Shown piece after piece: positions 2,275 to 43,600 of a DNA stretch of 64,000 nt (positions within the stretch are counted from its first letter, which is position 1; each line of letters begins with the position of its first letter). The notes under the pieces were generated by a model. That model made no database searches. It saw nothing but the letters and a program-made list of their open reading frames with translations, and was not told the DNA's origin. The stretch comes from an uncultured Verrucomicrobiota bacterium (GTDB lineage Bacteria > Verrucomicrobiota > Kiritimatiellia > CAYTQP01 > CAYXEW01), in contig CAYXEW010000001.1 in assembly GCA_964464115.1 (NCBI GenBank), forward strand, positions 8,740 to 72,739. Reading direction: 5' to 3'. The position numbers and the translations under genes are program-made.

Positions 2275-2867
2275 CGCTCAACCTCTTTCATTGTCACATT
2301 GAGCGGAACCGTTTAGAACAGCTCACGGTGAATATCAACATCTTTCTGAACGCAAGTTGCTGTGACGGCCCGTGAACCCACTGCTTGCAGCCTTCGCTGC
2401 GGCACCGCAGGCATTGTCGCCACTTGTAGCGGTGGCACCGCTCTTGGAAGGCGAAGCCCCGCTATGCTACTCTTCCATTTTAGATGAATAGCTCAGCAGG
2501 AGCTTCGCCCTCCAATAATGAGTTCCGCAGCCTGCATTATTCACTATGAAGAGCAATGAGTACTAAATATTAGCTCTTTGTACTATTTTGTGGAAAGCGT
2601 GTACTATCTCTATAACATCAGCGAATAGCACTGAGTATGCCCAGCCATGTATACCTCATGATTCATCCTATATCCGGCATTCAACATGCAGCAAACGGCG
2701 TAAGTTCTTATGAATAAGGAGTTAGTTGATTGTATCATTCACCTGTTGGCGAGAGAATAGAGACAGGAACGGCCGAAGGAAATCGTGATCCGCTCTCGTC
2801 GCCCGCTATCGTCTACCGAACAGAGGAAGAGTCGGTGGACGCGAACGGCGACGCGAAAGGTTGACGA

Positions 2868-3311
2868 GTGGGAAAGCGCAAACCATGTTCCCCTCTTCCG
2901 CCAGGAGAGGGCCGGGAATCACAGAATCCGACGGATTCGCCAACAACAGCGTTGAACAGGAAGAGAAATAAGATGCCAATCATAGGGATATTCACGGTCA
3001 TCGGGATGATCTTTGTCACGGTCTTCTTCACCGGCGTGAGGTTCTGGATCAAGCGGCACGGTCGAGGCATACTTCTGCTCTACGCCAGCACCGTCGCGGC
3101 GGTCTGGTGGGCCGGGCACTACTGCAACCAACTCCCGATGGATGCCCGGGGTGATCTGCTTTGGCACAGGAGATACACTCTAACGATTATGATCATCGGG
3201 CCACTGGCCATTCTCCTTTCAGCCATAATTGGCTACGCAGTCAGAATGAAGAAATACTTCCAGTCCGGGGGAGCAACCGAAGATAAGAAGTCCCAACAAC
3301 CGGCTGCATGA
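2868..3311 (+). CDS. hypothetical small integral membrane protein (about 3 predicted TM helices); the true start may be the internal Met at about 2973
   Basis: 147-codon ORF with hydrophobic stretches (IIGIFTVIGMIFVTVFF, LLLYASTVAAVWWAG, IMIIGPLAILLSAIIGY). It is flanked by long AT-rich spacers, and I recognise no family. Confidence 0.35.
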   Translation: MGKRKPCSPLPPGEGRESQNPTDSPTTALNRKRNKMPIIGIFTVIGMIFVTVFFTGVRFWIKRHGRGILLLYASTVAAVWWAGHYCNQLPMDARGDLLWHRRYTLTIMIIGPLAILLSAIIGYAVRMKKYFQSGGATEDKKSQQPAA

Positions 3312-3318
3312 CGACATT

Positions 3319-3338
3319 GTGTTCCGCGCGCGGAACAC
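3319..3338. promoter_or_regulatory. perfect 20-bp palindrome GTGTTCCGCGCGCGGAACAC, followed directly by the 10-bp palindrome CATGCGCATG (3339-3348)
   Basis: Read directly from the sequence, 8 nt after the stop codon of the 2868-3311 ORF. No U-tract follows, so it is either a non-canonical terminator hairpin or a protein operator. Confidence 0.5.
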
Positions 3339-3727
3339 CATGCGCATGAGCCGAAGCGTTGGGTGAAAGAAAGCTTGCTGCATTTTGAACCACAAGGGTT
3401 TGCTGATTTTGCCGCATCTACTGCGTTACAAGGGCTTTGGCATAGTTACTATAGCCAATAGCCCTGAAGTCTTGCAGCTACAGCAAACTTAGCAACTGCC
3501 GAATGTAGGTTTAGTTACTGCTTCAATGGACCTTTCCATTAGCCGTCACTATTTTTCATCTTCCACAAAATTCTACGAGGAACCTAAATAGTGCAGCTAA
3601 AAATCGAATATGACTTGCGGTGTAACATTAAATGACCCTGACCGGCTGCGACTGGTTATGGAAAATGACTTTAATTAAGTGCCTTATTATGATAGTATAA
3701 AGATAGAGAGAGAGTAGAGGTGCTGAA

Positions 3728-3955
3728 ATGCATGCGATAACGACTAGTCATATATTCCATCCGTCTACGTGGTGGCGTGATTCGGTTGAGGGTGTTCGGC
3801 GTCTGGCTCACAACAGGGACCTGATGCTGACGATGGGGGCATTATTGCTGATTATTGTGTTGGCAGCCGTGATTATGATGCTGGCCCAAAGCGTTATGTC
3901 CAGTGATCCTACTCGGATTATTCCGCCCTATGATTACATCCACTGGCGGGTATGA
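3728..3955 (+). CDS. hypothetical small membrane protein
   Basis: 75-codon ORF with a single strong hydrophobic segment (LMLTMGALLLIIVLAAVIMMLA). Support is weak because it sits inside a 850-bp AT-rich spacer. Confidence 0.2.
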   Translation: MHAITTSHIFHPSTWWRDSVEGVRRLAHNRDLMLTMGALLLIIVLAAVIMMLAQSVMSSDPTRIIPPYDYIHWRV

Positions 3956-4166
3956 AGTCGGATGTTTGGCCCTAGAGGACACGGGGTTTTTGTGTTTGCG
4001 GTAGGGTACGCGTCGCGGGCTGGAGAATAGGCGGTTTCTTATAACCGTTTTAGGCGGGGATTGATGTGACTCCTTAACTTATGAAAACCACCTCTAACTC
4101 TTCCTTGATTTCATGCGGCAGATATAGGCTTAATGATTCGCTGTATGCTGAAACAGGTATTATATT

Positions 4167-4616
4167 ATGAGGGGTAAGCCGTTAATCGAGTGGCTTTGTT
4201 TTACGGTGTGCTGGCTGATTCTGTTAATTCCGCTCATCGGTATCACAAAGACTAAGCCGGCTACGTTTCCGCCGCCGATGGGATCGTCTGCTGTCAGTTT
4301 ATCTGAATACTGGTTTTCTTTTGAAAGCACCGATTCTCCCGAACGTATTGAATGGAGGGTGGGTTCCAATACGCTTTGGCAGATCAGAGAGCCCGGTGAG
4401 TTTCACGATGAATTGATTGAGCTCGGTGAATATGCGCACGGGAAGCCTCTCACTATCGCATGCTTTTGGGTCGATAAGGCACGCCGTGCCACCCGCATGA
4501 CCATTGAATCGACAGACGGCCGTCAGTGGTCCGAAGTATTCTGGACGAATGGCGATACACTGATGGCCGAGCCTTTTCTGCACGTGCCGAAGGGGGGGGT
4601 AGATCGTGATGGATAA
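4167..4616 (+). CDS. hypothetical membrane-anchored protein, translationally coupled to the downstream ABC-3 transporter genes
   Basis: An N-terminal TM segment (LCFTVCWLILLIPLIGI) is followed by a soluble domain of about 110 aa. Its stop codon overlaps the GTG/ATG start of the ATPase gene. At about 149 aa it is too small to be a periplasmic substrate-binding protein. Confidence 0.45.
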   Translation: MRGKPLIEWLCFTVCWLILLIPLIGITKTKPATFPPPMGSSAVSLSEYWFSFESTDSPERIEWRVGSNTLWQIREPGEFHDELIELGEYAHGKPLTIACFWVDKARRATRMTIESTDGRQWSEVFWTNGDTLMAEPFLHVPKGGVDRDG

Positions 4617-5334
4617 GCAGCAACACGGTCATCATCTGCTAGCCGTTCGTGATCTGCACGCTCATTACGGCAGAGTATGTGCACTGCGTGACTTGTCTTT
4701 TGAGACTGAATGCGGAAGATCTGTAGCCATCGTAGGGGGGAACGGAGCCGGTAAAACGACTCTGATGAAGGCAATAGTCGGTCTCGTGCACGCGACGACC
4801 GGTGTGATTTTGTGGAAGGGTATGCCGGTGGTTAAAAGTACTCCGGAGATTGCATATCTACCCCAGCGTCAGGATGTAGACTGGCGCTTTCCGATAACCG
4901 TGCGCGGCCTTGTTGAAATGGGGCGTTACCCTTTTACGCGCATTTGGCGAGGGATGACCGGTGCCGATCATGATGCTGTTGAAAAAGCGCTGTGCGATAT
5001 GCAGATAGAACACCTCGCGGCCAGACAAATTGGCGCGCTATCCGGTGGACAGCAACAACGCGCTTTTATAGCAAAAGCACTCGCTCAGGAAGCCCATGTT
5101 CTGCTTTTGGATGAACCCTTCACCGGCCTGGACCAGCCGTCCGCTAAATCACTGGCCTTGTTGATGAAAGTGCTGACGCAAAAGGGATGTCTGATTATGG
5201 CGTCGCATCACGATGTTCGCTCAGTGGAAGAACTGTTCGACGAAGTATTGCTGCTGAATCACAGTCTCATTGCTTTTGGTGCCCCCGGTGATGTCATGAC
5301 GGAAGAATACATAGGAAAGGCCTTTTCACTATGA
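4606..5334 (+). CDS. ABC transporter ATP-binding protein, metal (Zn/Mn, ZnuC/MntB-like) type
   Basis: Walker A GGNGAGKTTL, signature LSGGQQQRAFIAKAL and Walker B LLLDEPFTGLD. At about 242 aa it has the typical size of ZnuC-family ATPases. It overlaps the permease gene by 4 nt. Confidence 0.85.
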   Translation: MMDKQQHGHHLLAVRDLHAHYGRVCALRDLSFETECGRSVAIVGGNGAGKTTLMKAIVGLVHATTGVILWKGMPVVKSTPEIAYLPQRQDVDWRFPITVRGLVEMGRYPFTRIWRGMTGADHDAVEKALCDMQIEHLAARQIGALSGGQQQRAFIAKALAQEAHVLLLDEPFTGLDQPSAKSLALLMKVLTQKGCLIMASHHDVRSVEELFDEVLLLNHSLIAFGAPGDVMTEEYIGKAFSL

Positions 5335-6194
5335 TGGAATGGGTGGATCTGCTGCAGTACGAGTTCAGTGAGCGCGCTATTGGTGCGGCACTGATGATCG
5401 GTCTTATGAACGGGTATCTGGGAGCTTATATTGTTTTACAGCGTTCATCACTGTATGTCGGAGGATTGACGCATACACTGTTTCCAGGTATTGCGCTCGG
5501 CGCGATTCTGGCGGGGCTGAATCCCGGCAGTGCCTTGGTCGGTGCGCTGGTTATGGCATTGTTGCTCAGCCTGATGTCGACAGGTATCGCCTCGTTCTCA
5601 CGCATCGATAAAGAAACGGCACTCGCCATCTTGTATACCGCCTGTTTTGGCGGTGGCGTACTGTTGTTGAAACATATCGAGACCTACGTTGATATCGAAA
5701 GTTATCTGTTCGGTAATATTCTGGGCGTATCGGATGTCGATCTGTGGTTTGTGTACGGGGCCGGATGGTTCTCCATATCCGGCCTCATTCTTTTTCAGCG
5801 CCCCTTGCTTCTGTATATCTTTTCTAGGGAGGCGGCGGCCGCGCAGGGGTTGCCCGTGGAACGTATGGGGTATGCCCTGTCGGCCCTGTTAGTCCTGGTG
5901 ATGATTACGTCACTGCTGGCCGTAGGTGCTATTCTCACATTGGGACTGCTGATCGCGCCCGCCGCCATCATGTATCTTTTCAGTAATTCATCGCGCGTGA
6001 TCATGCTGGGGGGGGCACTTCTGGGTGCTGTATTATCAGTCCTCTGCGTTGTGCTCTCTTTCGTGCTGGATGCGCCGACGGGCCCCGTTATTGTATCAGT
6101 TTTGGGAGTTTTATTTGTGCTGGCTTTTGTGCTCAGCCCCGAAAATGGTTTGCTGGCCCACGTTCTAAAGAAGCGCTACATGAAACAAAACTAA
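5331..6194 (+). CDS. ABC-3 family metal transporter permease (ZnuB/MntC-like)
   Basis: 287 aa, polytopic and Gly/Ala/Leu-rich, of ABC-3 type. It is coupled to the preceding ATPase gene by an ATGA overlap. Confidence 0.8.
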   Translation: MMEWVDLLQYEFSERAIGAALMIGLMNGYLGAYIVLQRSSLYVGGLTHTLFPGIALGAILAGLNPGSALVGALVMALLLSLMSTGIASFSRIDKETALAILYTACFGGGVLLLKHIETYVDIESYLFGNILGVSDVDLWFVYGAGWFSISGLILFQRPLLLYIFSREAAAAQGLPVERMGYALSALLVLVMITSLLAVGAILTLGLLIAPAAIMYLFSNSSRVIMLGGALLGAVLSVLCVVLSFVLDAPTGPVIVSVLGVLFVLAFVLSPENGLLAHVLKKRYMKQN

Positions 6195-6218
6195 TTCATC
6201 CCTGTCGGCAATAGCCGT

Positions 6219-6377
6219 TCAGAGCACATCAAAGGCATCTTTTCCGGCATAGCAGATGGGGCATACCCAGGATTCCGGTATATCCTCAAACGAGGTCCCC
6301 GGCGGAATGCCGCGCTCAGGATCACCTTTTGACTGATCATACACATAGCCGCAACTGGTACAAACCATCTTTTCCAT
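6219..6377 (-). CDS. rubredoxin
   Basis: [52 protein letters not shown] carries both CxxC(G) knuckles of rubredoxin at the expected spacing. The start is the internal Met of the longer ORF 6219..6464, and an AAAAAGGAA ribosome-binding site lies upstream. Confidence 0.85.
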
Positions 6378-6557
6378 GGGATCATAATTCCTTTTTGCTG
6401 TCGTTAAAGTCCGTATGCTATACCCGCTGATTTCTAAAAGCAAGCAGAGATCTGGATGTATCATGAATAACTCCTTGACCGCTTATGTATTCTGGAGTTA
6501 AATCCATACTAGTTTTGAATTCGGGCAAGACCGGAGCCCGTACAAAGGAATAATACT

Positions 6558-6851
6558 ATGACAAAAAGAGATTTAGTCGTTCGAATTGCAGAGGAGACCG
6601 GGCTCATTCAACAAGACGTTTTTGCTGTTATTCAGAAATCACTAGATTACATTACGGAGTCTCTTGCCGAGGGGAAAAATGTGGAATTTCGTAATTTCGG
6701 TGTATTCGAAATACAGGTGCGGAAGCCGCGCCTCGGCCGCAATCCCAATAAACCTGAAGAAGTGGTCACCATTCCGGCCCGCAAAGTGGTCAAATTTAAA
6801 CCCGGCAAGATTATGAAGCAGAAAGTTACTGACGGTTCTGCAATAGAATGA
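6558..6851 (+). CDS. HU/IHF family nucleoid-associated DNA-binding protein
   Basis: Starts MTKRDLV..IAE. It has the FGxFE...R.GRNP..G arm motif (FRNFGVFEIQVRKPRLGRNPNKPEEV) and is about 97 aa. Confidence 0.85.
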   Translation: MTKRDLVVRIAEETGLIQQDVFAVIQKSLDYITESLAEGKNVEFRNFGVFEIQVRKPRLGRNPNKPEEVVTIPARKVVKFKPGKIMKQKVTDGSAIE

Positions 6852-8119
6852 TGGCCTCGGAAAGTGCACAACCCCTGCAGGGCATGTCTGATATCGCCAG
6901 CCCTGAAATATACCTCTGGCAGTTTCTGGAACAACGGGCACGCACCAGCTTTCACCAGTACGGCTATACGGAGGTCCGGACTCCGCTGCTGGAAAGAAAA
7001 AATGTGTTTGTACGGTCGCTCGGTGACGGCACTGATGTAGTGCAGAAGGAAATGTATGCCTTTGAAGACCGCGGCGGGCGTGAGATTGCGCTGCGCCCCG
7101 AAGGAACAGCGGGCACCATACGGCATCTGCTCGGCAAAGGTATGGAGGGGCGAAACGACCGCGTTTTTTATATGGGTCCCATGTTTCGCTGCGAACGACC
7201 ACAGGCCGGACGCAAGCGTCAATTTCACCAGATAGGCGTGGAGGCTGCGAGCGAACCGAATGCCATACTGGATGCAGAGTGCATCGAAATGCAGATGCGG
7301 CTGATGGAATGCTGGGGCCTGTCAGGCTGTGAGTTGCAGCTCAATACACGTGGTGTGGGTGAGGATAAACAGCACGTGGTTGACGGCCTTAAACTCGCCC
7401 TGAGCAATACGATAGCGTCAATGTGTGATGACTGTCGGTCGCGTTACGATCAGAATACATTGCGCATACTCGATTGCAAGAAGGAGAGCTGCAGAGCGAT
7501 CATAGCGGACCTGCCGCCCGTGACGGATTTCATGGCCGAAGAGACCCGCGCCTATCTGCAGGAAGTGACATCTGTACTGGATCTTTATGGTGTCGTGTAT
7601 AAGCTGAATCCGTTGCTCGTTCGCGGTCTGGACTATTATGAACATACGGTTTGGGAGATTACCCATCCATCATTGGGTGCACAGGATGCGTTGGCCGGCG
7701 GAGGGCGCTATCGAATTCAGTACGGTAAAGATGCATTTGAGGGGGTGGGCTTTGCCATGGGCGTAGAGCGCGTCTGTATGGCGCTGACGTCAATCGGAAT
7801 CACCGGTGAGCAGCACAAGCCATCCATGCAGATAGCACTGATATCCCTCGGCGAGCGCGCACTCAAAGAAAATGCCGTATTGTGCCGGACCTTGCGACGT
7901 GAAGGGTTTTCCTGCATTATGGAAACGACGCATCGGAGTATGAAGGCCCAGATGAGATCTGCCAATCGACACGATGTAAAGCTGGCGCTGATCCGCGGTG
8001 ATGATGAACTGAACAGGGGCACGTGCCTGATCAAACAAATGAATGAGGGATCGCAGCAGGAAGTGTCGCTGGATGTCCTGATACAGCAACTGAGGGAGCT
8101 GACAGGTACAGACAGCTGA
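6848..8119 (+). CDS. hisS: histidyl-tRNA synthetase
   Basis: Class II motifs GMSD and LRPEGTAGTIR, then GGGRY and AMGVERV, followed by a C-terminal anticodon-binding-like domain. It is 423 aa. Confidence 0.75.
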   Translation: MMASESAQPLQGMSDIASPEIYLWQFLEQRARTSFHQYGYTEVRTPLLERKNVFVRSLGDGTDVVQKEMYAFEDRGGREIALRPEGTAGTIRHLLGKGMEGRNDRVFYMGPMFRCERPQAGRKRQFHQIGVEAASEPNAILDAECIEMQMRLMECWGLSGCELQLNTRGVGEDKQHVVDGLKLALSNTIASMCDDCRSRYDQNTLRILDCKKESCRAIIADLPPVTDFMAEETRAYLQEVTSVLDLYGVVYKLNPLLVRGLDYYEHTVWEITHPSLGAQDALAGGGRYRIQYGKDAFEGVGFAMGVERVCMALTSIGITGEQHKPSMQIALISLGERALKENAVLCRTLRREGFSCIMETTHRSMKAQMRSANRHDVKLALIRGDDELNRGTCLIKQMNEGSQQEVSLDVLIQQLRELTGTDS

Positions 8120-8289
8120 AATGCCGATCTCCCGCCAGAGGCGACTGTACGCTTGCCCGCCGCGCCATGCATACTCGCTCGAAGATCCATGCTTATCCCG
8201 GTAAAGATAGTTGCAATGTCATGCCGTCCTCTCTAGAATGCGCGGCTGATTTTGGTGATAGAATAGAATGAAAAGAGGGAGAATGTCCC

Positions 8290-10065
8290 ATGATGCGAAC
8301 ACGTACATGCGGTGAACTTGAACAGAAAAATAGTGGCGAAAAAGTAGAACTGGCAGGTTGGGTGGATACGGTTCGCGATCATGGCGGGATCATTTTTATT
8401 GATTTGCGTGATCGATACGGTCTTACACAGGTTATCTTTGATCCGCGGGATTCACAGGCGGCTTGGGATACGGCGCAGGCTACACGCAGTGAATATGTGA
8501 TCAAGGTTGTCGGCGTGGTGGAGGCCCGTCCGGATGACATGGTGAACCCCAGGTTGCTGACCGGCGGTATAGAAGTGCGGTGCAGTAGTATTGAGGTGTT
8601 GAATAAAAGTCAGACACCTCCTTTTCCGCTGGATGAAAAAGAAGCTCAGAAGGTGTCTGAGGATCTGCGCCTGCAGTACCGCTACCTCGATATACGGCGC
8701 AAATCGGTACAGGAAAATCTGCAGGCTCGACACCGTATTACGCAGGCGGTTCGCAGCTATCTCGACAGCCAGTCGTTTCTCGAAGTGGAAACGCCAATTC
8801 TGAGTAAAAGCACACCGGAAGGAGCGCGCGATTATCTGGTTCCCAGCCGCGTTATGCCCGGCACGTTTTTTGCACTGCCCCAGGCTCCTCAGCAGTACAA
8901 ACAGCTCTTAATGGTGGGAGCTATCGATCGCTATTTTCAAATTGCCCGTTGCTTCAGGGATGAGGACCTGCGTTCCGATCGTCAGCCGGAATTCACCCAG
9001 ATTGATATGGAGATGTCGTTTATAGCACCAGGCGATGTATATGAAACAGTCGATGGCCTGATGACCGCCGTTATGGAGGCAGCGGGGCACGGTCCGCTTC
9101 AGACTCCCATACCCAGGCTGACCTATGACGAGGCGATGAGCCGTTTCGGTTCCGATAAACCGGACCTGCGGTTTGAAATGGAACTCTGTGATTTGAGCGA
9201 TATATTTAGCGCAACCGAATGTAAAGTATTTGCTGCGGTTTTAGCCGCTGGCGGTGTAGTCAAAGCTATTAATGCAAAGGGTTTGGCAGGTGTGTCGGCG
9301 CGAGTGATTGATGATTGGACGACGCTGGCCCGCGATGAAGGTCTTGGCGGACTTGCCTATATCAAAGTTCAGGAGGGCGGCAACTGGAAATCGCCCATTG
9401 TTAAATTCTTCTCTGATGGAGAAAAAGAGGCGCTGCAACAACGCCTTGACATCCAGGAAGGCGACCTGATCCTTTTCGCCGCCGATCAGCCGGCGACGGT
9501 TCACAATGCGCTCGGGCGTCTCAGACTGCTGGCCGCGGAAATGGGGCATCATATACCGGATGACACTTTTTGTTTTACATGGGTGACCGACTTTCCCCTG
9601 TTTGAAAAAAATGAAGAAGGGCGGATTCATGCAATGCATCATCCGTTTACGTCGCCGCACCGTGAGGACCTCGATCAACTGGAGGAGGCACCGCTGAGTG
9701 CCCGGGCACAGGCATACGATCTTGTCTTAAACGGCGTCGAAATTGGTGGCGGCAGCATCCGAATTCACGATCCTGAAGTTCAGCGTAAAATGTTCAGGGT
9801 GCTGGGTATGCGTGAAGAAGAGTACGGGACTCAGTTCGGCCACCTCCTCAAAGCATTATCCTATGGAGCCCCGCCTCATGGCGGCATAGCTTTCGGCCTT
9901 GATCGCCTCGTTATGTTGATGGTGGGAGGAAGCAGTATTCGTGACGTGATTGCCTTTCCGAAAACACAGAAGGCCATGGATCTCATGATAGAAGCGCCGG
10001 CCGGAGTCAGTGAAAAACAGTTGCGCGAAATTTACATCAAAAGTGCCTTACCCGATCAAGAGTAG
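8290..10065 (+). CDS. aspS: aspartyl-tRNA synthetase
   Basis: Begins MRTRTCGEL. It has the N-terminal OB fold, FRDEDLRSDRQPEFTQIDMEMSF, and the C-terminal GGGSIRIHD and GLDRLVMLM motifs. It is 591 aa. Confidence 0.9.
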   Translation: MMRTRTCGELEQKNSGEKVELAGWVDTVRDHGGIIFIDLRDRYGLTQVIFDPRDSQAAWDTAQATRSEYVIKVVGVVEARPDDMVNPRLLTGGIEVRCSSIEVLNKSQTPPFPLDEKEAQKVSEDLRLQYRYLDIRRKSVQENLQARHRITQAVRSYLDSQSFLEVETPILSKSTPEGARDYLVPSRVMPGTFFALPQAPQQYKQLLMVGAIDRYFQIARCFRDEDLRSDRQPEFTQIDMEMSFIAPGDVYETVDGLMTAVMEAAGHGPLQTPIPRLTYDEAMSRFGSDKPDLRFEMELCDLSDIFSATECKVFAAVLAAGGVVKAINAKGLAGVSARVIDDWTTLARDEGLGGLAYIKVQEGGNWKSPIVKFFSDGEKEALQQRLDIQEGDLILFAADQPATVHNALGRLRLLAAEMGHHIPDDTFCFTWVTDFPLFEKNEEGRIHAMHHPFTSPHREDLDQLEEAPLSARAQAYDLVLNGVEIGGGSIRIHDPEVQRKMFRVLGMREEEYGTQFGHLLKALSYGAPPHGGIAFGLDRLVMLMVGGSSIRDVIAFPKTQKAMDLMIEAPAGVSEKQLREIYIKSALPDQE

Positions 10066-10102
10066 GGGGATGATGGCGTCGCCGGATTCCCGATGCCGTT
10101 AT

Positions 10103-11062
10103 CTACTCGCCGGTGTATCCGCCCATCGCATGATACTTATCATATCGCTGCTGCAGTAGTGTTTCCACAGGGAGTTGCTGCAGCTCGGCGAGATGCTCAA
10201 GAAGTGCCTGTTTGACATTGGCCGTCGCCACTTCCCAGTCGGCGTGCGCGCCACCTTCCGGTTCTTTAATAATCGCGTCTGCCATTTTGTTCTTTTTGAG
10301 GTCAGTGGCTGTCAGCTTCAATGCTTCAGCAGCTTTGTCAGCATATGCACGGTCTTTCCATAGAATCGCTGCACAGCCCTCAGGGGATATGACCGAATAG
10401 TAGGCGTTTTCCATAACGAGCACCCTGTCTCCGACACCGATGCCGAGAGCTCCACCACTGCCGCCTTCACCCGTGATACAGACTATGATCGGCACTTTGA
10501 TCTTAAACATTTCGCGCAGATTAACGGCAATGGCTTCGGCGATGTGGCGTTCTTCCGATTCGATGCCGGGATAGGCTCCCGGCGTATCGATCAACGTGAT
10601 CAGCGGCAAGCCGAATTTATCAGCCATTTTCATCAGACGCAGTGCCTTGCGGTAACCTTCAGGATAGGCACATCCAAAATTGCATTCCAGGTTACCCTTG
10701 GTATCCCGTCCTTTCTGCGTACAGATGATCATCGTTTTGTGCCCATCCAATGTAGCGGGGCCTCCAATGATAGCGCGGTCATCCGCATGTATACGATCTC
10801 CGTGCAGTTCTGTAAAATCCGTTGTGATGCTCTTGATATAGTCAATAGGGTAGGGCCGCTTCGGATGACGAGCCACCAGCACTTTCTGCCAAGGTGTCAG
10901 GTTACTGTAGATTTCGCGCCGCAGCTCCAGTATCTTTTCTTCCATACGGGAAACTTCAAGGGATACATCAATGTCCTGCTTTTCACTGAAATCCCGCAAT
11001 TCCTGCATTTTTTTTTCGAGCTCAACAATGGGCTTTTCAAATGGTAGTGTAAATGTATTCAT
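10103..11062 (-). CDS. accA: acetyl-CoA carboxylase carboxyltransferase alpha subunit
   Basis: MNTFTLPFEKPIVELE... reads as AccA along its full length (PGAYPGIESEERHIAEAI, ITGEGGSGGALG). I place the start at the Met preceded by GGGAG, which gives 319 aa; the ORF track extends it to 11089. Confidence 0.88.
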   Translation of the reverse strand: MNTFTLPFEKPIVELEKKMQELRDFSEKQDIDVSLEVSRMEEKILELRREIYSNLTPWQKVLVARHPKRPYPIDYIKSITTDFTELHGDRIHADDRAIIGGPATLDGHKTMIICTQKGRDTKGNLECNFGCAYPEGYRKALRLMKMADKFGLPLITLIDTPGAYPGIESEERHIAEAIAVNLREMFKIKVPIIVCITGEGGSGGALGIGVGDRVLVMENAYYSVISPEGCAAILWKDRAYADKAAEALKLTATDLKKNKMADAIIKEPEGGAHADWEVATANVKQALLEHLAELQQLPVETLLQQRYDKYHAMGGYTGE

Positions 11063-11093
11063 GATCTGACTCCCGAGAACCTGTTTCATGCTG

Positions 11094-12107
11094 TTAATCC
11101 TGTATGACGACCTCCGTGCCGGAAGGTATTAGACTGAATAGTTCCTCTACATCGCTGTTCAACAGTCTCACGCAACCTGCACTCTCATATTTACCAATAG
11201 TTTCGGGTTCCCACGTACCGTGTATTCCGTACCCGCGCAGAGCGGTATCTTCTCTGGCAATGAGTTGTAGCCAATGAGTTCCCAACACGTTTTCGGGATC
11301 ACCATACGGCACCTGCTTGCCGTCAGAGCGCCACCATGGGGGGTGCACTATACGGTCGCCGACCGTAAACAGACCTTCAGGTGTTTTGCTGTATTTACCC
11401 GTACCGATACGGTACGTTTTGAAATAGCGATCATTCAGGTAAACGGTTAGTATATTGTCGCTTTTATCGACAGTGATGCGGAACGTACCTTGCAGTACCC
11501 TCAAAATATCACCCACACGAATCAGGTCGCCCTTTATGTTGTTGCTCTTTCTGAGCAATTCAATCGTTGTGCCGTAAGTGGATGCAATTTTGCCCAGTGA
11601 GTCACCGCTTTTGACAATATACTGCGTCTTTTCCGGCATCATATACGGATCCATTACAAGCGATGTATGGATCTCATCCAGCATCTTCGCAGCGTTTTGG
11701 GCGGCGGCGGTGCCTTCGGCTGATTCGAGGATTTGAAAACAGAGATTGCGCGACTCGAGCAGTTGCTGCTGATTCTTGAGTTCACGTGCCTGAATAAGCA
11801 GATTAGCAACCTCTGCGGGCTCAGCTGTCGGTATTGCTCCAACCGGTCGGGGTTCTGACGATACAGACACAGGGTTCACTGTTTCCAGTGCCGGTGCCGT
11901 CTCCGGCACTTCGCTGTGCACGGTAACTTCAGCGACTGTAAGAGCCTGTTCAACTGCCGACGTTTCGGGCTGATCCGCGCGTTTGCGCTCTTTAACGACA
12001 GCTACGCGCCAACCGATTAAGGCGGCCGCCAGCAGGAAAAAAACGATGAGAAGAAGCGTAGGACGTTTTCTTCTGTCGAAATTCTTTTTTACATAAATAT
12101 CTGTCAT
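11094..12107 (-). CDS. LysM domain-containing L,D-transpeptidase (YkuD family)
   Basis: A LysM motif (YIVKSGDSLGKIASTYGTTIELLRKSNNI) is followed by a YkuD catalytic region (HGT...SAGCVRL). There is an N-terminal TM anchor. Confidence 0.8.
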   Translation of the reverse strand: MTDIYVKKNFDRRKRPTLLLIVFFLLAAALIGWRVAVVKERKRADQPETSAVEQALTVAEVTVHSEVPETAPALETVNPVSVSSEPRPVGAIPTAEPAEVANLLIQARELKNQQQLLESRNLCFQILESAEGTAAAQNAAKMLDEIHTSLVMDPYMMPEKTQYIVKSGDSLGKIASTYGTTIELLRKSNNIKGDLIRVGDILRVLQGTFRITVDKSDNILTVYLNDRYFKTYRIGTGKYSKTPEGLFTVGDRIVHPPWWRSDGKQVPYGDPENVLGTHWLQLIAREDTALRGYGIHGTWEPETIGKYESAGCVRLLNSDVEELFSLIPSGTEVVIQD

Positions 12108-12190
12108 ATCTAACGGGAATGTATTGCTACTGTCAAAGGTGTACAGTAGCGTTGAAATATTAACTTGGCAAGACAGGATCAGTTTTAGTT

Positions 12191-12973
12191 ATGGTATCTT
12201 TTCTTAGAAATGTGATGTGGAATAATTCCGTCAGAGGAGCCGTCAAGGTGTTGCTCATCTGCAACATTGTTATCTTTTTATTTCAAACGCTGTTGGATGC
12301 GGCATCGGGCGGACTCTTTACCTATCTTTTCGGGCTCAGCGCTGAAGGTATCAGCCGGGGCTTTTACTGGCAATTCGTTACCTATCAGTTTTTGCACGGC
12401 AATCTCATGCATATCCTGTTTAATATGATGGCCCTCTACTTCCTGGGGCCGGTGACGCTGCAGACTGTAGGAAACCGGCACTTCCTCATCATCTATCTGA
12501 TGAGCGGTGTGTTAGGCGGCCTGGGTTGGATTCAGATGCATCCTTATTCGGGCTATTTTTGCGTGGGGGCTTCCGGATCGGTCGTGGGGGTTGTAGCCGC
12601 ATTCACCATACTGTTTCCCAATCGGCCTATGATGCTGCTCATTTTCCCTTTCCGTCCGTTTAAGGCCTGGGTACTTGCGGTCGGTATTTTGGTAATAGAA
12701 TTTTTGCTGATGCTCGCGCGGCCGGGAGGCGGTATAGCACACAGTGTCCATTTGATGGGGGGCATGGTCGGAGCTGTGTACACGTTGATTGTATTCAGAA
12801 GAGACTGGTTGATCCATCGTATGAGTGGTCGTCACCGCATGCGTCGCCCTCCGACAATTTCACGCGATGAAGTGGACCGCATTCTCGATAAAATCAGCCG
12901 CCAGGGCATAGGTTCACTGACACCCAGAGAGCGAGCTGTACTTAAAGACGCCAGCGAGAGAAGGCAGATATAG
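12191..12973 (+). CDS. rhomboid family intramembrane serine protease
   Basis: GASGSV on one helix and HLMGGMVGA on another supply the catalytic Ser/His dyad. The protein is polytopic, with a basic cytoplasmic tail of about 60 aa at the C-terminus. Confidence 0.8.
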   Translation: MVSFLRNVMWNNSVRGAVKVLLICNIVIFLFQTLLDAASGGLFTYLFGLSAEGISRGFYWQFVTYQFLHGNLMHILFNMMALYFLGPVTLQTVGNRHFLIIYLMSGVLGGLGWIQMHPYSGYFCVGASGSVVGVVAAFTILFPNRPMMLLIFPFRPFKAWVLAVGILVIEFLLMLARPGGGIAHSVHLMGGMVGAVYTLIVFRRDWLIHRMSGRHRMRRPPTISRDEVDRILDKISRQGIGSLTPRERAVLKDASERRQI

Positions 12974-13064
12974 ATCGCTCAGACGCGGAGTTGACAGGGT
13001 AGGCATTCAGCGTTTGGCTACTGTTGATTCCAGCCTGTATTATTCATGAGTTCAAAATGCAGGG

Positions 13065-20428: not shown

Positions 20429-20505
20429 TGGCGTACCCAGCAGGAGTCGAACCTGCAACCTCCTGATCCGTAGTCAGGTGCTCTATCCAATTGAGCTATG
20501 GGTAC
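20429..20505 (-). tRNA. tRNA-Arg (anticodon ACG)
   Basis: The reverse complement GTACCCATAGCTCAATTGGATAGAGCACCTGACTACGGATCAGGAGGTTGCAGGTTCGACTCCTGCTGGGTACGCCA folds as a cloverleaf. The anticodon loop is CUACGGA and the CCA end is encoded. Confidence 0.9.
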
Positions 20506-20617: not shown

Positions 20618-20975
20618 GGGGGCGACTGGCTTCGACGTGTAGGTTGAAGCATTTGTTGCGTGTCGAGGATATCGGTGGGCCTCGTAAATCATCCGGTAAA
20701 AACAATAAAAGCCAACCAAGAATTGGCCCTCGCAGCGTAACATAAGTCTGCGACGTCTCTACGTTGACGCCTGCTAGGCGATAGAGGCGACGACAGCAGG
20801 CTGGCTCCAAAGCCGGGCAGCCGGGCCGAGGAGTAAGATCTATTTCGTGGCCGCTGGTCCGATGATCAGTCTGTTCGTCGACAGTTCATCGGGCGAGATT
20901 AAATGACGGAATACACACGTAGATGCATATGTGACTCTTATGCGGACGGGGGTTCAATTCCCCCCGCCTCCACCA
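20618..20975 (+). ncRNA. ssrA: tmRNA (ssrA)
   Basis: The 5' end GGGGGCGACUGGCUUCGACG pairs with the 3' end CGCCUCCACCA to form a tRNA-Ala-like acceptor stem carrying the G3-U70 identity pair. A T-arm (GGGGGUUCAAUUCCCCC) and an internal tag ORF (...GCC AAC CAA GAA TTG GCC CTC GCA GCG TAA, peptide ...ANQELALAA) are present. Confidence 0.9.
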
Positions 20976-21002
20976 TTTGAAAAAAACAAACTGATCCTGT
21001 TG

Positions 21003-21036
21003 CCGATTCCTTAACGCGGGGTCGGTTTTTATCTTT
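21003..21036 (+). terminator. putative terminator after ssrA (a weak stem followed by TTTTTATCTTTT)
   Basis: The CCGA...TCGG stem is short, but a T-rich tract lies 28 nt after the tmRNA 3' end. Confidence 0.3.
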
Positions 21037-21251
21037 TGATTTATTAGCCTGTATTATGCACGCATTCAAAATATTGTAGCTGCGAGACGCCAGAGGTGCT
21101 GCTGTAATTTTCTACCGCAAGTCTCTGGCAACGAAGCAGATGCAGCATTTTCAACGCGCCCTCTGGGTAAAAAACGCCATTGACTCTTGTATTTAATTCC
21201 GTTATCGACTTCAAATTCAACTTTTACTCTCACTTATCATTATTAATTGCT

Positions 21252-21302
21252 ATTCAATATGTACCATTTCTTATGGCGTTTTTTATGAAGTATGCAGGTT
21301 AG
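21252..21302 (+). repeat. copy B of the duplicated element of about 50 bp (see 18503-18553)
   Basis: It lies inside the AT-rich spacer of the ssrA-adjacent insertion, about 350 bp upstream of the 21649 ORF. Confidence 0.6.
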
Positions 21303-21648
21303 ACTGATCTATTCATAAAAATGGATGAGAATGATTGTACCTCTTGGGTTTGGGATGGATATGGATTTTTGATCGTGAATAATTCAGGTTAGCGACTTAT
21401 GCTGTATAGAGCGTTTTGCAACATGCTCCGGATTCACTCCCGCTTCGGAAAATCTCATTCCCTTCCTGGCAATGTGAGTGAGACACCAAACGGAGAAAGT
21501 GCGAAGGGTTGGAACAAAGAGGGGGTGCCATCAGAAGGACTGCACTGTTGACAGCGCGGGGCGTCTTGCGGTAGAAACCAAGTTATTGGAGCATAGCTTT
21601 ATCCACGAGTGCAGGAAGCGAAAGTGTTACCCTTTTTAGACAAACTCT

Positions 21649-23145
21649 TTGTCATTATCAGATAGGAGAAACAAGGTGCGAGATTATCAGACAGAAGAAG
21701 CGGGAGCAAGTACAGCAAGGCTGGAAACCTTAATTAATGCGTTTTTAAGCAGGTGCAATAAAAGCGAAGTAAAGCTGCGTGCAGATTTAACGATACGAAA
21801 AGAACCAGGATTTACAAGAGCTTCAAGCGGCGCAAAGGTGTGGGAAATCAATCCTGGTGTACTTGATAGAGATGCTTTCCTGAATGAAATTGCTGACGAT
21901 GTTGGGCTTCATGCAGAAACACTTCGCTCAGAAGACTGGGCACCATTAAGGGATCAGATTTGGTTTGACGCAAAACTTGAATTAGCTGTGCGAGATGTGC
22001 CGTGGATACAAGAAACTGATATCCGTATAACCGATTTATATGATCCAAAAGTGCGCTTACTCGTAGGGTTGGGAGATGTCAGGGGCTCAGCTTCATACCA
22101 ATCGTTCTACGTTAATTTTTATCGAAATAGAGAGCTGTCGGAAGTCCAGGCTATTTTTAACACCGCGGGTTATCGATTGATACCCATACCTGTTCAAATG
22201 GAGGAAAAAGATCTTTCTAAAATGGGGCGAGTGTTGAACACAATTTTGGGTGATAACCGTATTATACGGATGGCTTTTACAAAACCAACTAAAGAAGCAG
22301 CAGTCAAAACCGGATTATTTAATGTGATCGATCCTGATACTTTAGATACGGGTGTAGTCAATACTGCGGCTATTGAGAGGGAAGGTTCAGAACGGCATTT
22401 TGTAAGGCGAACTACAGATGGTCTTGGAACTATTGCGAAGGCAAAGGAGAGTCTTGCCAAAACAGGGCGTACGCTTGGAAACAGTATTACGGGTATAATA
22501 GGTTTGCGTGGATTTGGTTCTGCAGTTTTAGGCAAACTTTTGACCGATTTAGAGGCGCCCAACGAAGTTCGTATAGCTGTTAGAGATGCCAGTTATCAAC
22601 ATGCAGTGGAAGTAATAGATTGGATTAAAAAGGCCTATGAGAAAAAAACCGGTAAACCAACACAAACGATCATTCGCATTCTAAAATATTCGGAGTTTGA
22701 TTTTGAACACGAATCACATCCTCTGAAACAAGTCGATGTTTTGTTTGATTGCACAAAAGTCGGCATGAATGATGATCACTATTCTCTGCGTTATTTAGGA
22801 TTCATCACTCCCACTATGATTGTATTCCATGCTGCTTATAGGGATAAAGATAAACAACCGCGTGTGCCGCCTATATTATGCAAGGCCAGAGCGTTTGGAG
22901 CCGTGGTCCATAATGGTATAGCTGATTGGCTGGGGCATCAATATATGCAGGTAACGGAAGATTTGAAACGGGCTTCGGGATTGATGCCGGATATGCCGGA
23001 GTGGAATGATGATAAGTGGGTAACTATTCGCAACCAGCTTGAAAACGTTGCTTTCAAGTGGGCCAATTTACAGGGATTAAAAGATGCTATGGATCTTTTG
23101 GGTGAGTCAGGTGTTGAAGGTCCTAAAGCAGACGGGCATGAATGA
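21649..23145 (+). CDS. hypothetical protein: an N-terminal region of about 270 aa with no family I recognise, fused to a shikimate/quinate-dehydrogenase-like NAD(P)-binding domain. Composition is foreign.
   Basis: The 498-codon ORF is AT-rich (about 40 % GC in the first 100 nt against about 50 % in the neighbouring mutL) and uses A/T-ending codons. A GTG start at 21676, 8 nt after AGGAG, is an alternative start. The C-terminal half aligns by eye with AroE-family motifs: GIIGLRGFGSAVLGKLL...RIAVRDAS (Rossmann loop and NRT-like strand), DVLFDCTKVGM (INATSVGM-like) and HNGIADWLGHQYMQ (NGLGMLxxQA-like). Confidence 0.6.
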   Translation: MSLSDRRNKVRDYQTEEAGASTARLETLINAFLSRCNKSEVKLRADLTIRKEPGFTRASSGAKVWEINPGVLDRDAFLNEIADDVGLHAETLRSEDWAPLRDQIWFDAKLELAVRDVPWIQETDIRITDLYDPKVRLLVGLGDVRGSASYQSFYVNFYRNRELSEVQAIFNTAGYRLIPIPVQMEEKDLSKMGRVLNTILGDNRIIRMAFTKPTKEAAVKTGLFNVIDPDTLDTGVVNTAAIEREGSERHFVRRTTDGLGTIAKAKESLAKTGRTLGNSITGIIGLRGFGSAVLGKLLTDLEAPNEVRIAVRDASYQHAVEVIDWIKKAYEKKTGKPTQTIIRILKYSEFDFEHESHPLKQVDVLFDCTKVGMNDDHYSLRYLGFITPTMIVFHAAYRDKDKQPRVPPILCKARAFGAVVHNGIADWLGHQYMQVTEDLKRASGLMPDMPEWNDDKWVTIRNQLENVAFKWANLQGLKDAMDLLGESGVEGPKADGHE

Positions 23146-40662: not shown

Positions 40663-43600
40663 CTAGCTGTTTTTCAGGGTCGCTAGCATATCCCGCAATT
40701 TCTGCCCCATTGCGCTATGTTCAAACTTGAGAAACAGCTTACCCATGAAGCGAGAAGAACGCAGTGATGAGGTGAACCAGTAAGCCAATCGAGAATTGGG
40801 AAACAGGTAGGTTGGTAATTCCGTCTGTGTAAACGGCATATTCCAGTCAATGCCTTTGAATGCCGTAATATTGGGCATCATAAGAGTCTGAATCCAAGCG
40901 CAAGCAGCTGGATCTAATTGACCTTCAGCCCACTCTTCCGCCATTCCCTGCCTTAAAATGGCCTGATTGACAGACTCCCATATGTGGCCGCTGCCATTAT
41001 GCAGCCATTCTTTCCAGATATCGCCCTCTTCATCGACACAGGCCCTGCCGGTGTCTTTACTCAGTATTGGCGAAAGCTGCAGTGCATTATCAAAAATTCG
41101 GGTTACGTCCTGAATAAAGCGCTCGGGATCCGTCTGCTGGAGTGTGGGGGCATTGTGCAATGCCGGGTTACATCGATACAGTTCGAGGGCCCGCAGGAAT
41201 GCAGTGTGTTCATTGGGGACAAAGCAGGGTCGCTGCAGAGAAAGCAGTGTCAGCATGCGGCCCACTTTTCGCTGGCGCTCCAGAAAGGAATGCGGCGTCA
41301 TCAGGTGATTGTGAAAACCGATGGCGTTTTCCAAGTGGCGCAGGACCATGCCGCGCAAATGCAGGCGATATCCAAATTCAATATCCTCATAAGCCGCGTA
41401 GCGGTAGCGCGTGCTGAAAAGAACTTCTTCACGTATGACGAATGATCTCTTCAGTGAGCAGTTAGAGGTGTAGAGGCGGTCAAAAGGGACGACGGCGTCA
41501 TGGCTCATATCGTTGTATTTAAACTGCTGGCCGCCCGAACCCGTTATGTGTTCCATAAAGACGGTCTCGGGTAAGTCCGGATGCCAGAGGGTCAGTCCGA
41601 CAAAGGCCGTGTCTTCCTGCGGGAATCGATCGTGGCCACGTATATGGGTCGACAGAAAGTCCTTGCGCGGCTCGATATCATCGCCGGTAATGAGGATGAT
41701 TTTGCCCGCGGCCTGTTGTATCGCCAGGTTTCGAGCCGCTGCGGGACCGCCTTGACCGCAGTTGTCCAATACGCGGACATTCAGCATACTGTGTCTGGAG
41801 GCCTCTCGCTGTACGGCCTCGAGGTCCCCGTGATCATTGACAATGACAATTTCATACGTCCGCGGATCGATCGTCTGTTGCCGGTAGGCGTTCAGCGTCT
41901 GACCCAGAACATCGACCCGATCTTTTGTCGGAATAATGACCGAAAGGTCTACCGTGTCAGGATAGTTTCGTTTACTGATTTCGACGAAGCGATCATCGTG
42001 CCAGTCTTCAAGGGTTTTCATGAGGCGCCCAGCGGCAGCATCCCATGAAAAATTTGAACGAACCTGTTCCAGTGCCCGCTGACCGGTTTCGATCACTTCA
42101 TCTCTGCGATCAAGAATGGATGTAAGCTGTTCTGTCAGGCTGTCTTCGCGCGGTTGACACCAGTAAGCACCTTCTCCGAGAAAATAGTGATTGTAGTCAT
42201 AGCAGTTTTTGACGGGTACTTCATCGTAGGGAAGGTCGAAAAACATGCCCGAACGGGCAAACTCCATGGGGCCTCCGAAAGCGGGCATCAATGTGGGCAC
42301 CCCGACAGCAGCAGCATCCAGGATTTTCATAGCAAAGCCCTCCCCGCGAAACGGGGCCAGCTGGATATCCATGGAGGCGTACAACCTGATCAGGTCTTGC
42401 TTACTGAGGAATTCCCTGTGCCAGACAATACGCGGAAATTGTGGTTGTTCGGCGATCCACTTCTTGAGCTGCGCATCACTGGCCCCGGCCCCGTAATCCT
42501 TGATATGCAGGACAACCGGATCCCGCTCGCTGTAGGCGCGACCCAGTGCTTTTATGGCGATGTCCGTTCCGTAGCGGTAGAGATCATGGGAATTCGTCAC
42601 CATCAGCATTTGCAGTTCATCGTTATTATTCTTCCCCGCAAGGGCATCGGCATCCGGGTACAGCGCATCGATTTCCGTTGAATAGCCGAGGGGTACCGTT
42701 TGGCAGGCCTTTTCCGGAATTCCTATTTCCAGCAATGCATCCCGGTTAAAACCGGATACCGGTATTTTACGGAATTCATTGACTTGGACATGGCGCATCC
42801 AGAGATCCAGCTTCCGCCCTTCCATTCGGTAACGATAGTTTGTGCAGAAGAACTCGGCATTGATGTCACCGAACAGTGGTTTCCTGTAATAGTCTGGCCA
42901 GTAATGGGTCCATTTGACATGATAGGTACTGCGAGGCTGCGCAGACATACAGGCCCGCAGCATATTCTGATGATGCCTCTCAATGGAGTCATCCAGCTTG
43001 GTGGACATGGGAATACTCAGTGAGACGCCGCGTCTGCGGAGGGCTCCCATGAGATCAACAGTAGCCCATGTGAAGGCATTGGCTTTTGTAAAATCGACAT
43101 TCAGGTGGAGTCCTTTTTCAGCGCTCGGTCGGTTGCTAGTCCTGCGAGCCGCTTTTTCATTGTGGATACGGTCCTGTTCTCCCAGTGTTTCCAAATCCCA
43201 CTCGTAGCGGTTATTCCAGCGCGACAAAAACTGTTGCCAGTTCTCTTCATCTTTTTCCGTTCTTCCTTCGGTGGCCTGACCGTAGTGATATATTTTACTG
43301 GCAGGCGTATACCAGACACCATATCCGGCCTGCCGTGAGCGAAGGCAAAAATCGACGTCTTCAAAGCCGTTTTGGTAGCTTTCATCGAGGCCGCCCAGTT
43401 CGTCGTATACCTTTTTAGCTATCATGACGCAGGCGAAGGTGACGCACTGAAATTGACGCTGGTAGAGAGCGGAGGGCGTATCGGGCGGCATTCCGGGATT
43501 CAGATGGAGGGGAAAGCCCTCTTTGTCAAACCCCATTCCTGCATGCTGAATCTTTCCTGAATCCGGATAGAGGTGGCAATTGGCCAATACCCCGACGCGA

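Follow-up and report, generated by a model that had tools for sequence, protein, structure and literature searches.

What does a lone gene of foreign composition encode when it stands directly behind the transfer-messenger RNA (tmRNA) gene of its host? This question is raised by an open reading frame (ORF) at positions 21649–23145 (+) of the window, i.e. the whole 64-kb (64,000-nucleotide) stretch of DNA analyzed here. The original prediction described the product as a 498-aa orphan protein in which a Rossmann domain resembling that of shikimate dehydrogenase (SDH) follows an N-terminal region of about 270 aa that resembles nothing recognizable. The open frame is real, a frame scan having confirmed that it is uninterrupted, but the better product is a shorter one of 489 aa: the favored start is the GTG at 21676, which gives a coding sequence at 21676–23145 (+) (protein P0001; ORF scan, public gene call and tblastn) and is preceded, six bases upstream, by the Shine-Dalgarno sequence AGGAGA (21664–21669, +; read from the sequence). 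The TTG at 21649, from which the 498-aa version would start, has no ribosome-binding site and lies upstream of the point where tblastn homology to the relatives of the protein sets in. Since the ribosome-binding site, the public gene call and the start of homology coincide at GTG 21676, the numbering of the 489-aa protein is used throughout.

In the reading that we favor, this gene would be a horizontally acquired, free-standing copy of an enzyme cassette of about 480 aa that combines a 112-aa N-terminal domain, a complete, highly divergent SDH/quinate dehydrogenase core and a short helical C-terminal cap. Its product is probably an NAD(P)-dependent cytoplasmic oxidoreductase built around a Lys206/Asp248 dyad, with a shikimate- or quinate-like hydroxy-carboxylate as substrate, a reading in which we place moderate confidence.

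Homology and predicted active-site residues of the SDH core

Three profile and structure comparisons connect P0001 with SDHs. First, hhalign aligned the seven-member family of P0001 with 30 AroE sequences over 247 columns (99.9% probability, E 3.8e-32), residues 159–442 of P0001 corresponding to AroE positions 30–276 of 294. Second, an hmmsearch of the PDB with a hidden Markov model of the first three homologues gave as best match the shikimate dehydrogenase 3don (E 7.8e-11), in two stretches that correspond to the substrate-binding subdomain and to the Rossmann domain. Third, YdiB, AroE and quinate dehydrogenase led the Foldseek matches of the full-length AlphaFold2 (AF2) model (E 5e-9 to 1e-6). 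In addition, the homologue P0002 has a sub-threshold match to the Pfam model Shikimate_dh_N (E 8.7e-4). By these comparisons, P0001 is a member of the SDH superfamily (AroE/YdiB fold), with significant homology over both subdomains. The four Rossmann motifs singled out in the original prediction do align with their AroE equivalents in the profile–profile comparison, as well as in the PDB hmmsearch and with Foldseek: GIIGLRGFG with GAGGA, VRIAVRD with I.NRT, DVLFDCTKVGM with DiiINtTsVGM, and HNGIADWLGHQ with NGlgML..Q. In contrast, the claim that the N-terminal 270 aa or so are unlike the AroE substrate domain has to be abandoned: residues ~125–248 are the counterpart of the AroE substrate-binding subdomain, with its TxPxK, GxVNT and TDG motifs, and the unmatched stretch shrinks to residues 1–112.

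The SDH core is thus organized as follows: (i) the substrate-binding subdomain (residues 125–248; 22048–22419, +), delimited by PDB hmmsearch, MAFFT and hhalign, carries FTKPTK (201–206, the TxPxK motif), GxVNT (226–230) and TDG (247–249); (ii) the Rossmann NAD(P)-binding domain (residues 249–413; 22420–22914, +), delimited by the same methods and Foldseek, carries the glycine loop GLRGFG (276–281), VRD (302–304), DCTKVGM (358–364) and Y388; (iii) the C-terminal return of the SDH fold (residues 414–442; 22915–23001, +), delimited by MAFFT and hhalign, has an EDLKR motif after Q422. When P0001 was aligned by MAFFT with distant homologues and AroE sequences, the invariant columns were G133, T202, P204, K206, N229, D248, G249, G276, G279, T360, G363, Y388, L401 and G414. 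Most of them fall in AroE motifs: T202, P204 and K206 match TxPxK, in which K206 (nucleotides 22291–22293, +) corresponds to the catalytic Lys (K65 in Escherichia coli); N229 matches the Asn of GAVNT; D248 (nucleotides 22417–22419, +) and G249 match the TDG of AroE NTDG, with D248 at the place of the catalytic Asp (D102); G276 and G279 belong to the glycine-rich loop, T360 and G363 to TxVGM; Y388 matches a conserved Tyr (Y215), and G414 the NG motif (G237). Q422 pairs with AroE Q244. The E. coli numbers are those of an AroE sequence that aligned consistently with six AroE sequences from databases. Neither of the predicted catalytic residues, K206 and D248, varies in the family, in the distant homologues or among the AroE sequences, and four candidate substrate contacts (N229, T247, Y388 and Q422) align with AroE and are invariant in the family.

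If P0001 works as these residues suggest, Lys206 and Asp248 would promote hydride transfer between the nicotinamide and the secondary alcohol or ketone of a hydroxy-carboxylate, which would be held by Ser138/Ser140, Asn229, Thr247, Tyr388 and Gln422. As for the cofactor, the AroE NRT motif, whose Arg and Thr bind the 2'-phosphate of NADP, is replaced in P0001 by VRD (302–304); the presence of D304 instead of the Thr suggests a preference for NAD(H) over NADP(H). This suggestion is a weak one because the residue that aligns with NRT differs between members of the family.

Several points weigh against a straightforward assignment of P0001 to a working SDH-type enzyme: (i) taken alone, P0001 has no Pfam SDH match at E < 10; (ii) its scores against the NCBIfam aroE-type models are only 21–42 bits, compared to curated cut-offs of 200–430; (iii) the AF2 model is poor over the substrate subdomain (pLDDT, the predicted local distance difference test, 24–60); (iv) AroE Asn59 is replaced, NVT becoming AFT, and the family has Phe or Leu at that site; (v) the NRT equivalent varies in the family (VRD, VRN, ETD, DIW); (vi) the pairing of GSASY (137–141) with AroE HSxSP, on which the role of Ser138 and Ser140 depends, comes from MAFFT and motif likeness only and lies outside the hhalign match; (vii) a lone gene with a featureless leader of 630 bp could be silent cargo, a point taken up below. 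The GSASY–HSxSP pairing is bridged by GSSSPP in two intermediate proteins (P0009 and P0024), and we propose it tentatively. The low scores bear on the rank of the protein within the superfamily: with 21.5 bits for TIGR00507 (cut-off 200.2), 24.3 for NF001319 (cut-off 252) and all other scores below cut-off as well, P0001 is not, by these models, AroE proper (the NADP-dependent shikimate 5-dehydrogenase, EC 1.1.1.25), YdiB or any other curated equivalog.

The same searches brought up another branch of the fold. The PDB profile search matched the terminal amidation domain (TAD) of carmabin (9e4x/9e4s, E 2e-4) and Foldseek returned structures of TAD and of acyl-ACP reductase (AAR; ACP, acyl carrier protein) (E 3e-7 to 2e-4), as would be expected if P0001 belonged to this branch and reduced or amidated thioesters. 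These enzymes act on a carrier-protein thioester and require an invariant catalytic Cys (10.1101/2024.10.28.620694); no Cys is found among the 116 invariant columns of the P0001 family, the SDH matches are stronger and span both subdomains with the Lys/Asp dyad kept, and neither a carrier protein nor a nonribosomal peptide synthetase (NRPS) context was seen. Membership of the TAD/AAR group was rejected on the lack of a conserved Cys, which leaves such an activity extremely improbable.

What remains unmatched is the N-terminal domain (residues 1–112; 21676–22011, +), predicted to start with a helix, followed by three strands and then by two to three helices. It is conserved in the close family, with a near-invariant segment, QIWLDGKLEFAVRDVPW, and modeling it alone gave a pLDDT of 88.7 and a pTM (predicted template modeling score) of 0.83. 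No significant match was found in the PDB or in BFVD, the best Foldseek match against BFVD having an E of 0.085. A zincin (SprT/IrrE) identity recurred among these weak BFVD matches and was rejected, as the family has neither an HExxH motif nor a conserved His or Cys in this domain. At the other end, the SDH core is followed by a family-specific helical extension of about 45 aa (residues 443–475; 23002–23100, +; AF2 and family alignment), which closes with the family-wide module-end motif GLKDAMDLL. The N-terminal domain would probably serve in substrate gating or partner binding; together with the C-terminal cap, it may modify access of the substrate or mediate interactions.

Relatives and their cassette architecture

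The protein was called an orphan, and it very nearly is one: only three matches were found among 5.8 billion proteins and six close matches among 1.84 billion cluster representatives, while the representative genomes of 185,579 species contain four loci; scans of JGI metagenome contigs and of IMG/VR returned no relatives. Counting the window, eight copies were recovered, the other seven being six full-length copies and one contig-end fragment. Five of these seven are cassettes within larger proteins (1,199 to more than 2,740 aa) of Omnitrophota, 'Planctomycetia' and unclassified metagenome-assembled genomes (MAGs) or metagenomes: P0004 (1,199 aa, N terminus probably truncated), whose module (residues 372–863) is 66% identical to P0001; P0005, encoded at locus L004 of an Omnitrophota MAG (3,148 aa, module 2317–2800); P0006, encoded at L005 of a 'Planctomycetia' MAG (2,376 aa, module 1866–2362); the L006 giant of Omnitrophota (2,020 aa, module 1452–1924); and the L007 giant of an unclassified MAG (more than 2,740 aa, the gene leaving the contig; module ~714–1236). 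P0002, from a JGI metagenome (714 aa, module 147 to ~650), has an extra N-terminal region and a C-terminal tail. The 277-aa P0003, from an ENA metagenome contig, is a fragment: the contig starts with an Illumina adapter (positions 1–60 of L003, read as ...VTGVQTCALPI*), so P0003 is a contig-end piece of a longer homologue rather than a short member of the family. P0001 is the stand-alone member, the whole protein being the module: in tblastn comparisons, the window ORF covers exactly the module and stops where P0005 reads on (...ADGHE|VMRAD...).

The giants carry other enzyme-like domains, which vary from one giant to another. Pfam recognizes a Zn-dependent alcohol dehydrogenase domain (Zn-ADH; ADH_N) and a class II aldolase domain in P0005 and P0006, whereas a URO-D-like domain is present in the L006 giant; by eye, a GNAT-like RGRGIG segment lies just ahead of the module in P0004, P0005 and P0006. 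The other segments of P0005 gave, against the PDB, only a weak hint of a PHP phosphoesterase (E 0.17). Sec-type signal peptides, identified by eye, open P0005, P0006 and the L006 giant. Behind the signal-peptide-like start, several giants (P0007, P0009 and P0024, and also P0006) display an 'ALRP'-type motif, again seen by eye (ASALRPTGLEE, ALALRARSGGLEE, DALALRPIAAK), perhaps a lineage-specific signature of export or processing.

Short linker motifs also recur, far more often than by chance. RSE[AV]R is present ten times in the L007 giant (ORF 64–8285, residues counted from nucleotide 64), with 0.007 occurrences expected by chance, and two of these sites (residues 702 and 1238) bracket the module. 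Likewise, P0009 contains GLE[ED] seven times, where 0.26 occurrences would be expected, and the sites at 267 and 656 flank its module (306–661); GLEE sites 206 and 579 bracket a distant SDH-like module (228–527) in P0024, and DAAM/DAM-type motifs repeat in the L006 giant (5645–11707). This distribution suggests a beads-on-a-string or polyprotein layout, in which the motifs would be possible processing sites. Moreover, in two homologues the module is followed by a tail of about 65 aa, GGIDL...(K/R)xGxGVxMQFDPAMIERIKREGFDGLEFxIxSIxPxxNLPLLLGL, found at residues ~650–714 of P0002 (L002 gene 1829–3973) and 1949–2020 of the L006 giant (ORF 5645–11707). According to a profile search, the GGIDL tail also forms the extreme C terminus of dozens of other protein clusters, at least about 60 of the 150 matches listed (proteins of 66–1766 aa, e.g. 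P0010 and P0012–P0023). It has no counterpart among the Pfam and NCBIfam models, and nothing relevant was found in the literature under 'GGIDL'; the tail resembles a domain for sorting, secretion or anchoring that has yet to be catalogued.

The surroundings of the giant genes point to mobility. Orthologous tyrosine recombinases (52% identity) are encoded directly upstream of the giant genes at L004 (1801–2874) and L005 (3220–4278), and L005 also has a tRNA-Ser upstream (640–729) and a large serine recombinase downstream (11592–13064); because of these recombinases and this tRNA, the giant genes appear to be carried by integrative elements. The P0002 gene adjoins an IS240-type/rve transposase.

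These architectures allow a more ambitious account, which we regard as rather unlikely: the unit of about 480 aa would be a cassette of undescribed, exported and integrase-associated 'enzyme polyproteins' of Omnitrophota and neighboring phyla, the window gene would have escaped into a Kiritimatiellota chromosome at ssrA, the tmRNA gene, and been domesticated there, and the N-terminal domain would redirect the SDH core to a substrate other than shikimate. In this account, the polyproteins would be chains whose modules are spaced by lineage-specific linkers (RSE[AV]R, GLEE, DAAM), possibly cleaved by a protease, the chains sometimes closing with the GGIDL tail. A step further, the giants might be exported, perhaps cut at the linkers, and deliver their enzymes to the prey or host of predatory or parasitic Omnitrophota, the stand-alone copy then being a captured effector, a decoy or an immunity-like derivative. 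The signal peptides, the motifs that bracket the modules and the widespread tail are all consistent with this, as is the description of Omnitrophota giant proteins with metabolic-enzyme-like domains in predicted extracellular regions (10.1101/2023.11.21.568195). Yet the window protein has neither signal peptide nor tail and would thus act inside its own cell, the giants considered here are multi-enzyme chains of 1.2–3.1 thousand aa rather than archaeovorins of more than 30 thousand aa, and the word 'shikimate' is absent from both papers on Omnitrophota giant proteins that were searched. We therefore hold this role to be unlikely; note that it concerns biological function and is compatible with the same dehydrogenase chemistry as the favored reading.

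The islet behind ssrA and the state of the stand-alone copy

The original prediction placed the gene in a foreign islet, and base composition bears this out: its GC content is 0.428 and its GC content at third codon positions (GC3) 0.343, compared to 0.49–0.52 and 0.51–0.61, respectively, in nine neighboring genes. The GC3 of the Omnitrophota module at L004 (0.344) matches that of the window gene. The low-GC islet, whose borders are set by GC alone, is about 2.2 kb long; it extends from just behind the ssrA terminator (~21035) to about 23250. Its left edge is marked by ssrA (20618–20975, +; ARAGORN; Rfam RF00023, 186 bits), which encodes the tag peptide ANQELALAA and has a tRNA-Arg gene upstream (20429–20505, −), and by a terminator-like hairpin with a T-run behind ssrA (21002–21036, +; hairpin scan), about where the drop in GC begins. 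The 3' ends of ssrA genes are classic integration sites for islands. A search around the islet for an att-like direct repeat of the tmRNA 3' end gave only short chance repeats. The Kiritimatiellia with the most similar MutL proteins (~50% identity) do not share the gene order downstream of mutL and thus offered no empty site for comparison.

Between the terminator and the Shine-Dalgarno sequence lies an AT-rich leader of about 630 bp (21037–21663) without recognizable content. Its GC content is ~0.42 overall, falling to a minimum of 0.33 at 21200–21400, with a richer patch (0.52) at 21400–21600. An Rfam search of 20976–21700 at a permissive threshold and a PHROG search of the small ORFs of the leader gave no match, promoter and terminator scans of the leader did no better than on shuffled sequence, the ssrA terminator excepted, and a tblastn search of the window, leader included, with the giant proteins as queries revealed no remnants of flanking domains. 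The leader also contains a perfect 13-nucleotide inverted repeat (21109–21121/21565–21577).

Is the gene, then, merely what is left of a decayed giant-gene integrative element at ssrA, its frame open and unused? It stands alone behind this leader, without partner genes; no att repeat or integrase is left; and both ends of the ORF coincide exactly with the module borders of a larger gene. In addition, the proteins checked from the host genome are each singletons at 90% identity, so that cross-strain conservation cannot be checked. The coding sequence itself points the other way: the 1,470-bp frame is intact, has its own good ribosome-binding site and start and stops cleanly at the end of the module, tblastn found no leftovers of neighboring domains, and random deletion would seldom excise a domain so precisely while supplying translation signals. 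Of the 122 columns at which the other six members do not vary, P0001 retains 116 (95%), every catalytic position included, which is the level seen in the embedded modules (84–98% when each of these is left out in turn). The six changes comprise four conservative ones (L97F, I298V, F350L and T437M) as well as E403K and K406A. The retained positions, the gene's own translation signals and the clean stop argue for a functional, or at least recently functional, gene, and we regard a non-functional relic as improbable.

The gene had also been proposed to lie at a defence or accessory hot spot and, possibly, to encode an anti-phage or conflict effector that binds or depletes NAD(P). The part of this proposal that stands is the location, since the gene does follow an island-insertion site; besides, the islet is foreign and low in GC, the relatives are accompanied by integrases, recombinases and a transposase, and the fold binds NAD. 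On the other hand, no family of PADLOC-DB v2 matched at E ≤ 10 and PHROGs gave nothing; no defence gene was found in the examined regions of the window, where the neighbors are housekeeping genes; the IMG/VR scan yielded no relative; the predicted active site, with its Lys/Asp dyad, belongs to a reversible dehydrogenase and not to an NADase (such as TIR, SIR2 or SEFIR); and most homologues are cassettes in signal-peptide-bearing giants, not members of defence islands. When the neighborhoods of the homologues were checked for defence genes, recombinases, SMC, a peptidase and a glycosidase-like protein were found instead. A defence role is accordingly very unlikely, and the finding opens no new defence mechanism. 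Of the two options originally put forward, the anti-phage effector is thus unsupported, while the oxidoreductase is the one we favor, P0001 being predicted to be a complete SDH-type enzyme with the Lys/Asp dyad and contact residues; the broader idea of a novel accessory gene survives, there being no full-length match to a characterized family in a housekeeping neighborhood.

The wider region around the islet is a housekeeping one: AspRS, LemA, a TPM-domain protein, RhaA and MutL are encoded upstream, a PIG-L deacetylase, XerD and PurC downstream and, farther away, GlnE, SecA and glycosyltransferases. The nearby recombinase scores 360.9 bits against the XerD equivalog model (cut-off 329.6) and has a host-like GC3, and is therefore the chromosomal XerD and not an integrase of the islet. 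The named best matches of the window AspRS (66–68% identity) and MutL (45–49% identity) are from Kiritimatiellia/Kiritimatiellae, some being labeled 'Verrucomicrobia' or 'Spartobacteria' MAGs; judging by these matches, the host is a deep-branching Kiritimatiellota-like bacterium of the PVC (Planctomycetes–Verrucomicrobia–Chlamydiae) group. Elsewhere in the window, a 1094-aa fused GT2 + GT4 glycosyltransferase (40663–43947, −), which also matches the 'GT4 in conflict systems' model of Pfam weakly, adjoins a Wzt-type ABC ATPase with a Wzt_C domain (43965–45302, −); this pair, which has no connection with the SDH-like gene, probably forms a locus for the export of O-antigen or glycans.

Comparison with known systems

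If P0001 is active, it would represent a new and very rare SDH/quinate dehydrogenase clade with an extra unmatched domain and no link to aromatic amino-acid synthesis, and would widen the range of substrates and architectures of a well-studied enzyme family. It would also provide a clean case of a single domain cassette that crossed phyla, from an Omnitrophota-like composition to a Kiritimatiellota-like genome, and survived there as a gene in its own right. While its enzymology is probably conventional, what is unusual is the rarity, the N-terminal domain, the cross-phylum escape and the polyprotein-like relatives. The by-products of the analysis may even outweigh the gene, in that the motif-bracketed multi-enzyme giants and the widespread tail point to unstudied export or processing in uncultured PVC-related bacteria.

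Compared to the members of the SDH superfamily (AroE, YdiB and quinate dehydrogenase; PF08501 with PF01488/PF18317), P0001 shows the same succession of substrate subdomain, Rossmann domain and C-terminal return, with TxPxK, GxVNT, TDG, the glycine-rich loop, xTxVGM, the conserved Tyr and NG...Q. It departs from AroE in several respects: the identity is only 20–25%, and the scores stay under every curated Pfam and NCBIfam threshold; P0001 adds the 112-aa unmatched domain, a conserved lead-in helix, the C-terminal helical extension of ~45 aa and an insertion of ~25 aa in the Rossmann domain; Asn59 is lost and NRT has become VRD; and the context is that of a cassette in a giant protein or of a lone islet gene, not that of aromatic amino-acid synthesis. 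Between AroE and the family stand the SDH-like modules of P0007, P0008, P0009, P0011 and P0024 (E 1e-16 to 1e-9), the closest relatives outside the family, none of which is characterized. They share with it the lead-in W....GI...DL..P..F.LHLG, the enlarged Rossmann region and the C-terminal extension, and are likewise embedded in multi-domain proteins and bracketed by repeated linkers; unlike the family, they lack the part of the N-terminal domain formed by residues 1–95 and have the motifs TQPHK and TNTDG or TNSDG.

The NRPS TAD and the cyanobacterial acyl-ACP reductase are of the same fold superfamily and also form NAD(P)-binding units of ~400 aa in larger proteins, the family of P0001 differing from them by its SDH Lys/Asp dyad and the absence of the conserved Cys. 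Finally, the giants described here resemble the Omnitrophota giants (archaeovorins and the dockerin type): two of the loci are from the same phylum, and in both cases very long proteins with signal peptides and metabolic-enzyme-like domains occur in surroundings rich in mobile DNA, the length and the mobile DNA being described in both of the papers searched and the enzyme-like domains in one of them. The giants that contain the P0001 module are, however, chains of 1.2–3.1 thousand aa made of Zn-ADH-like, class II aldolase, possible PHP-like and GNAT-like domains and the SDH-like cassette, whereas the window protein is a stand-alone protein of 489 aa from a different phylum.

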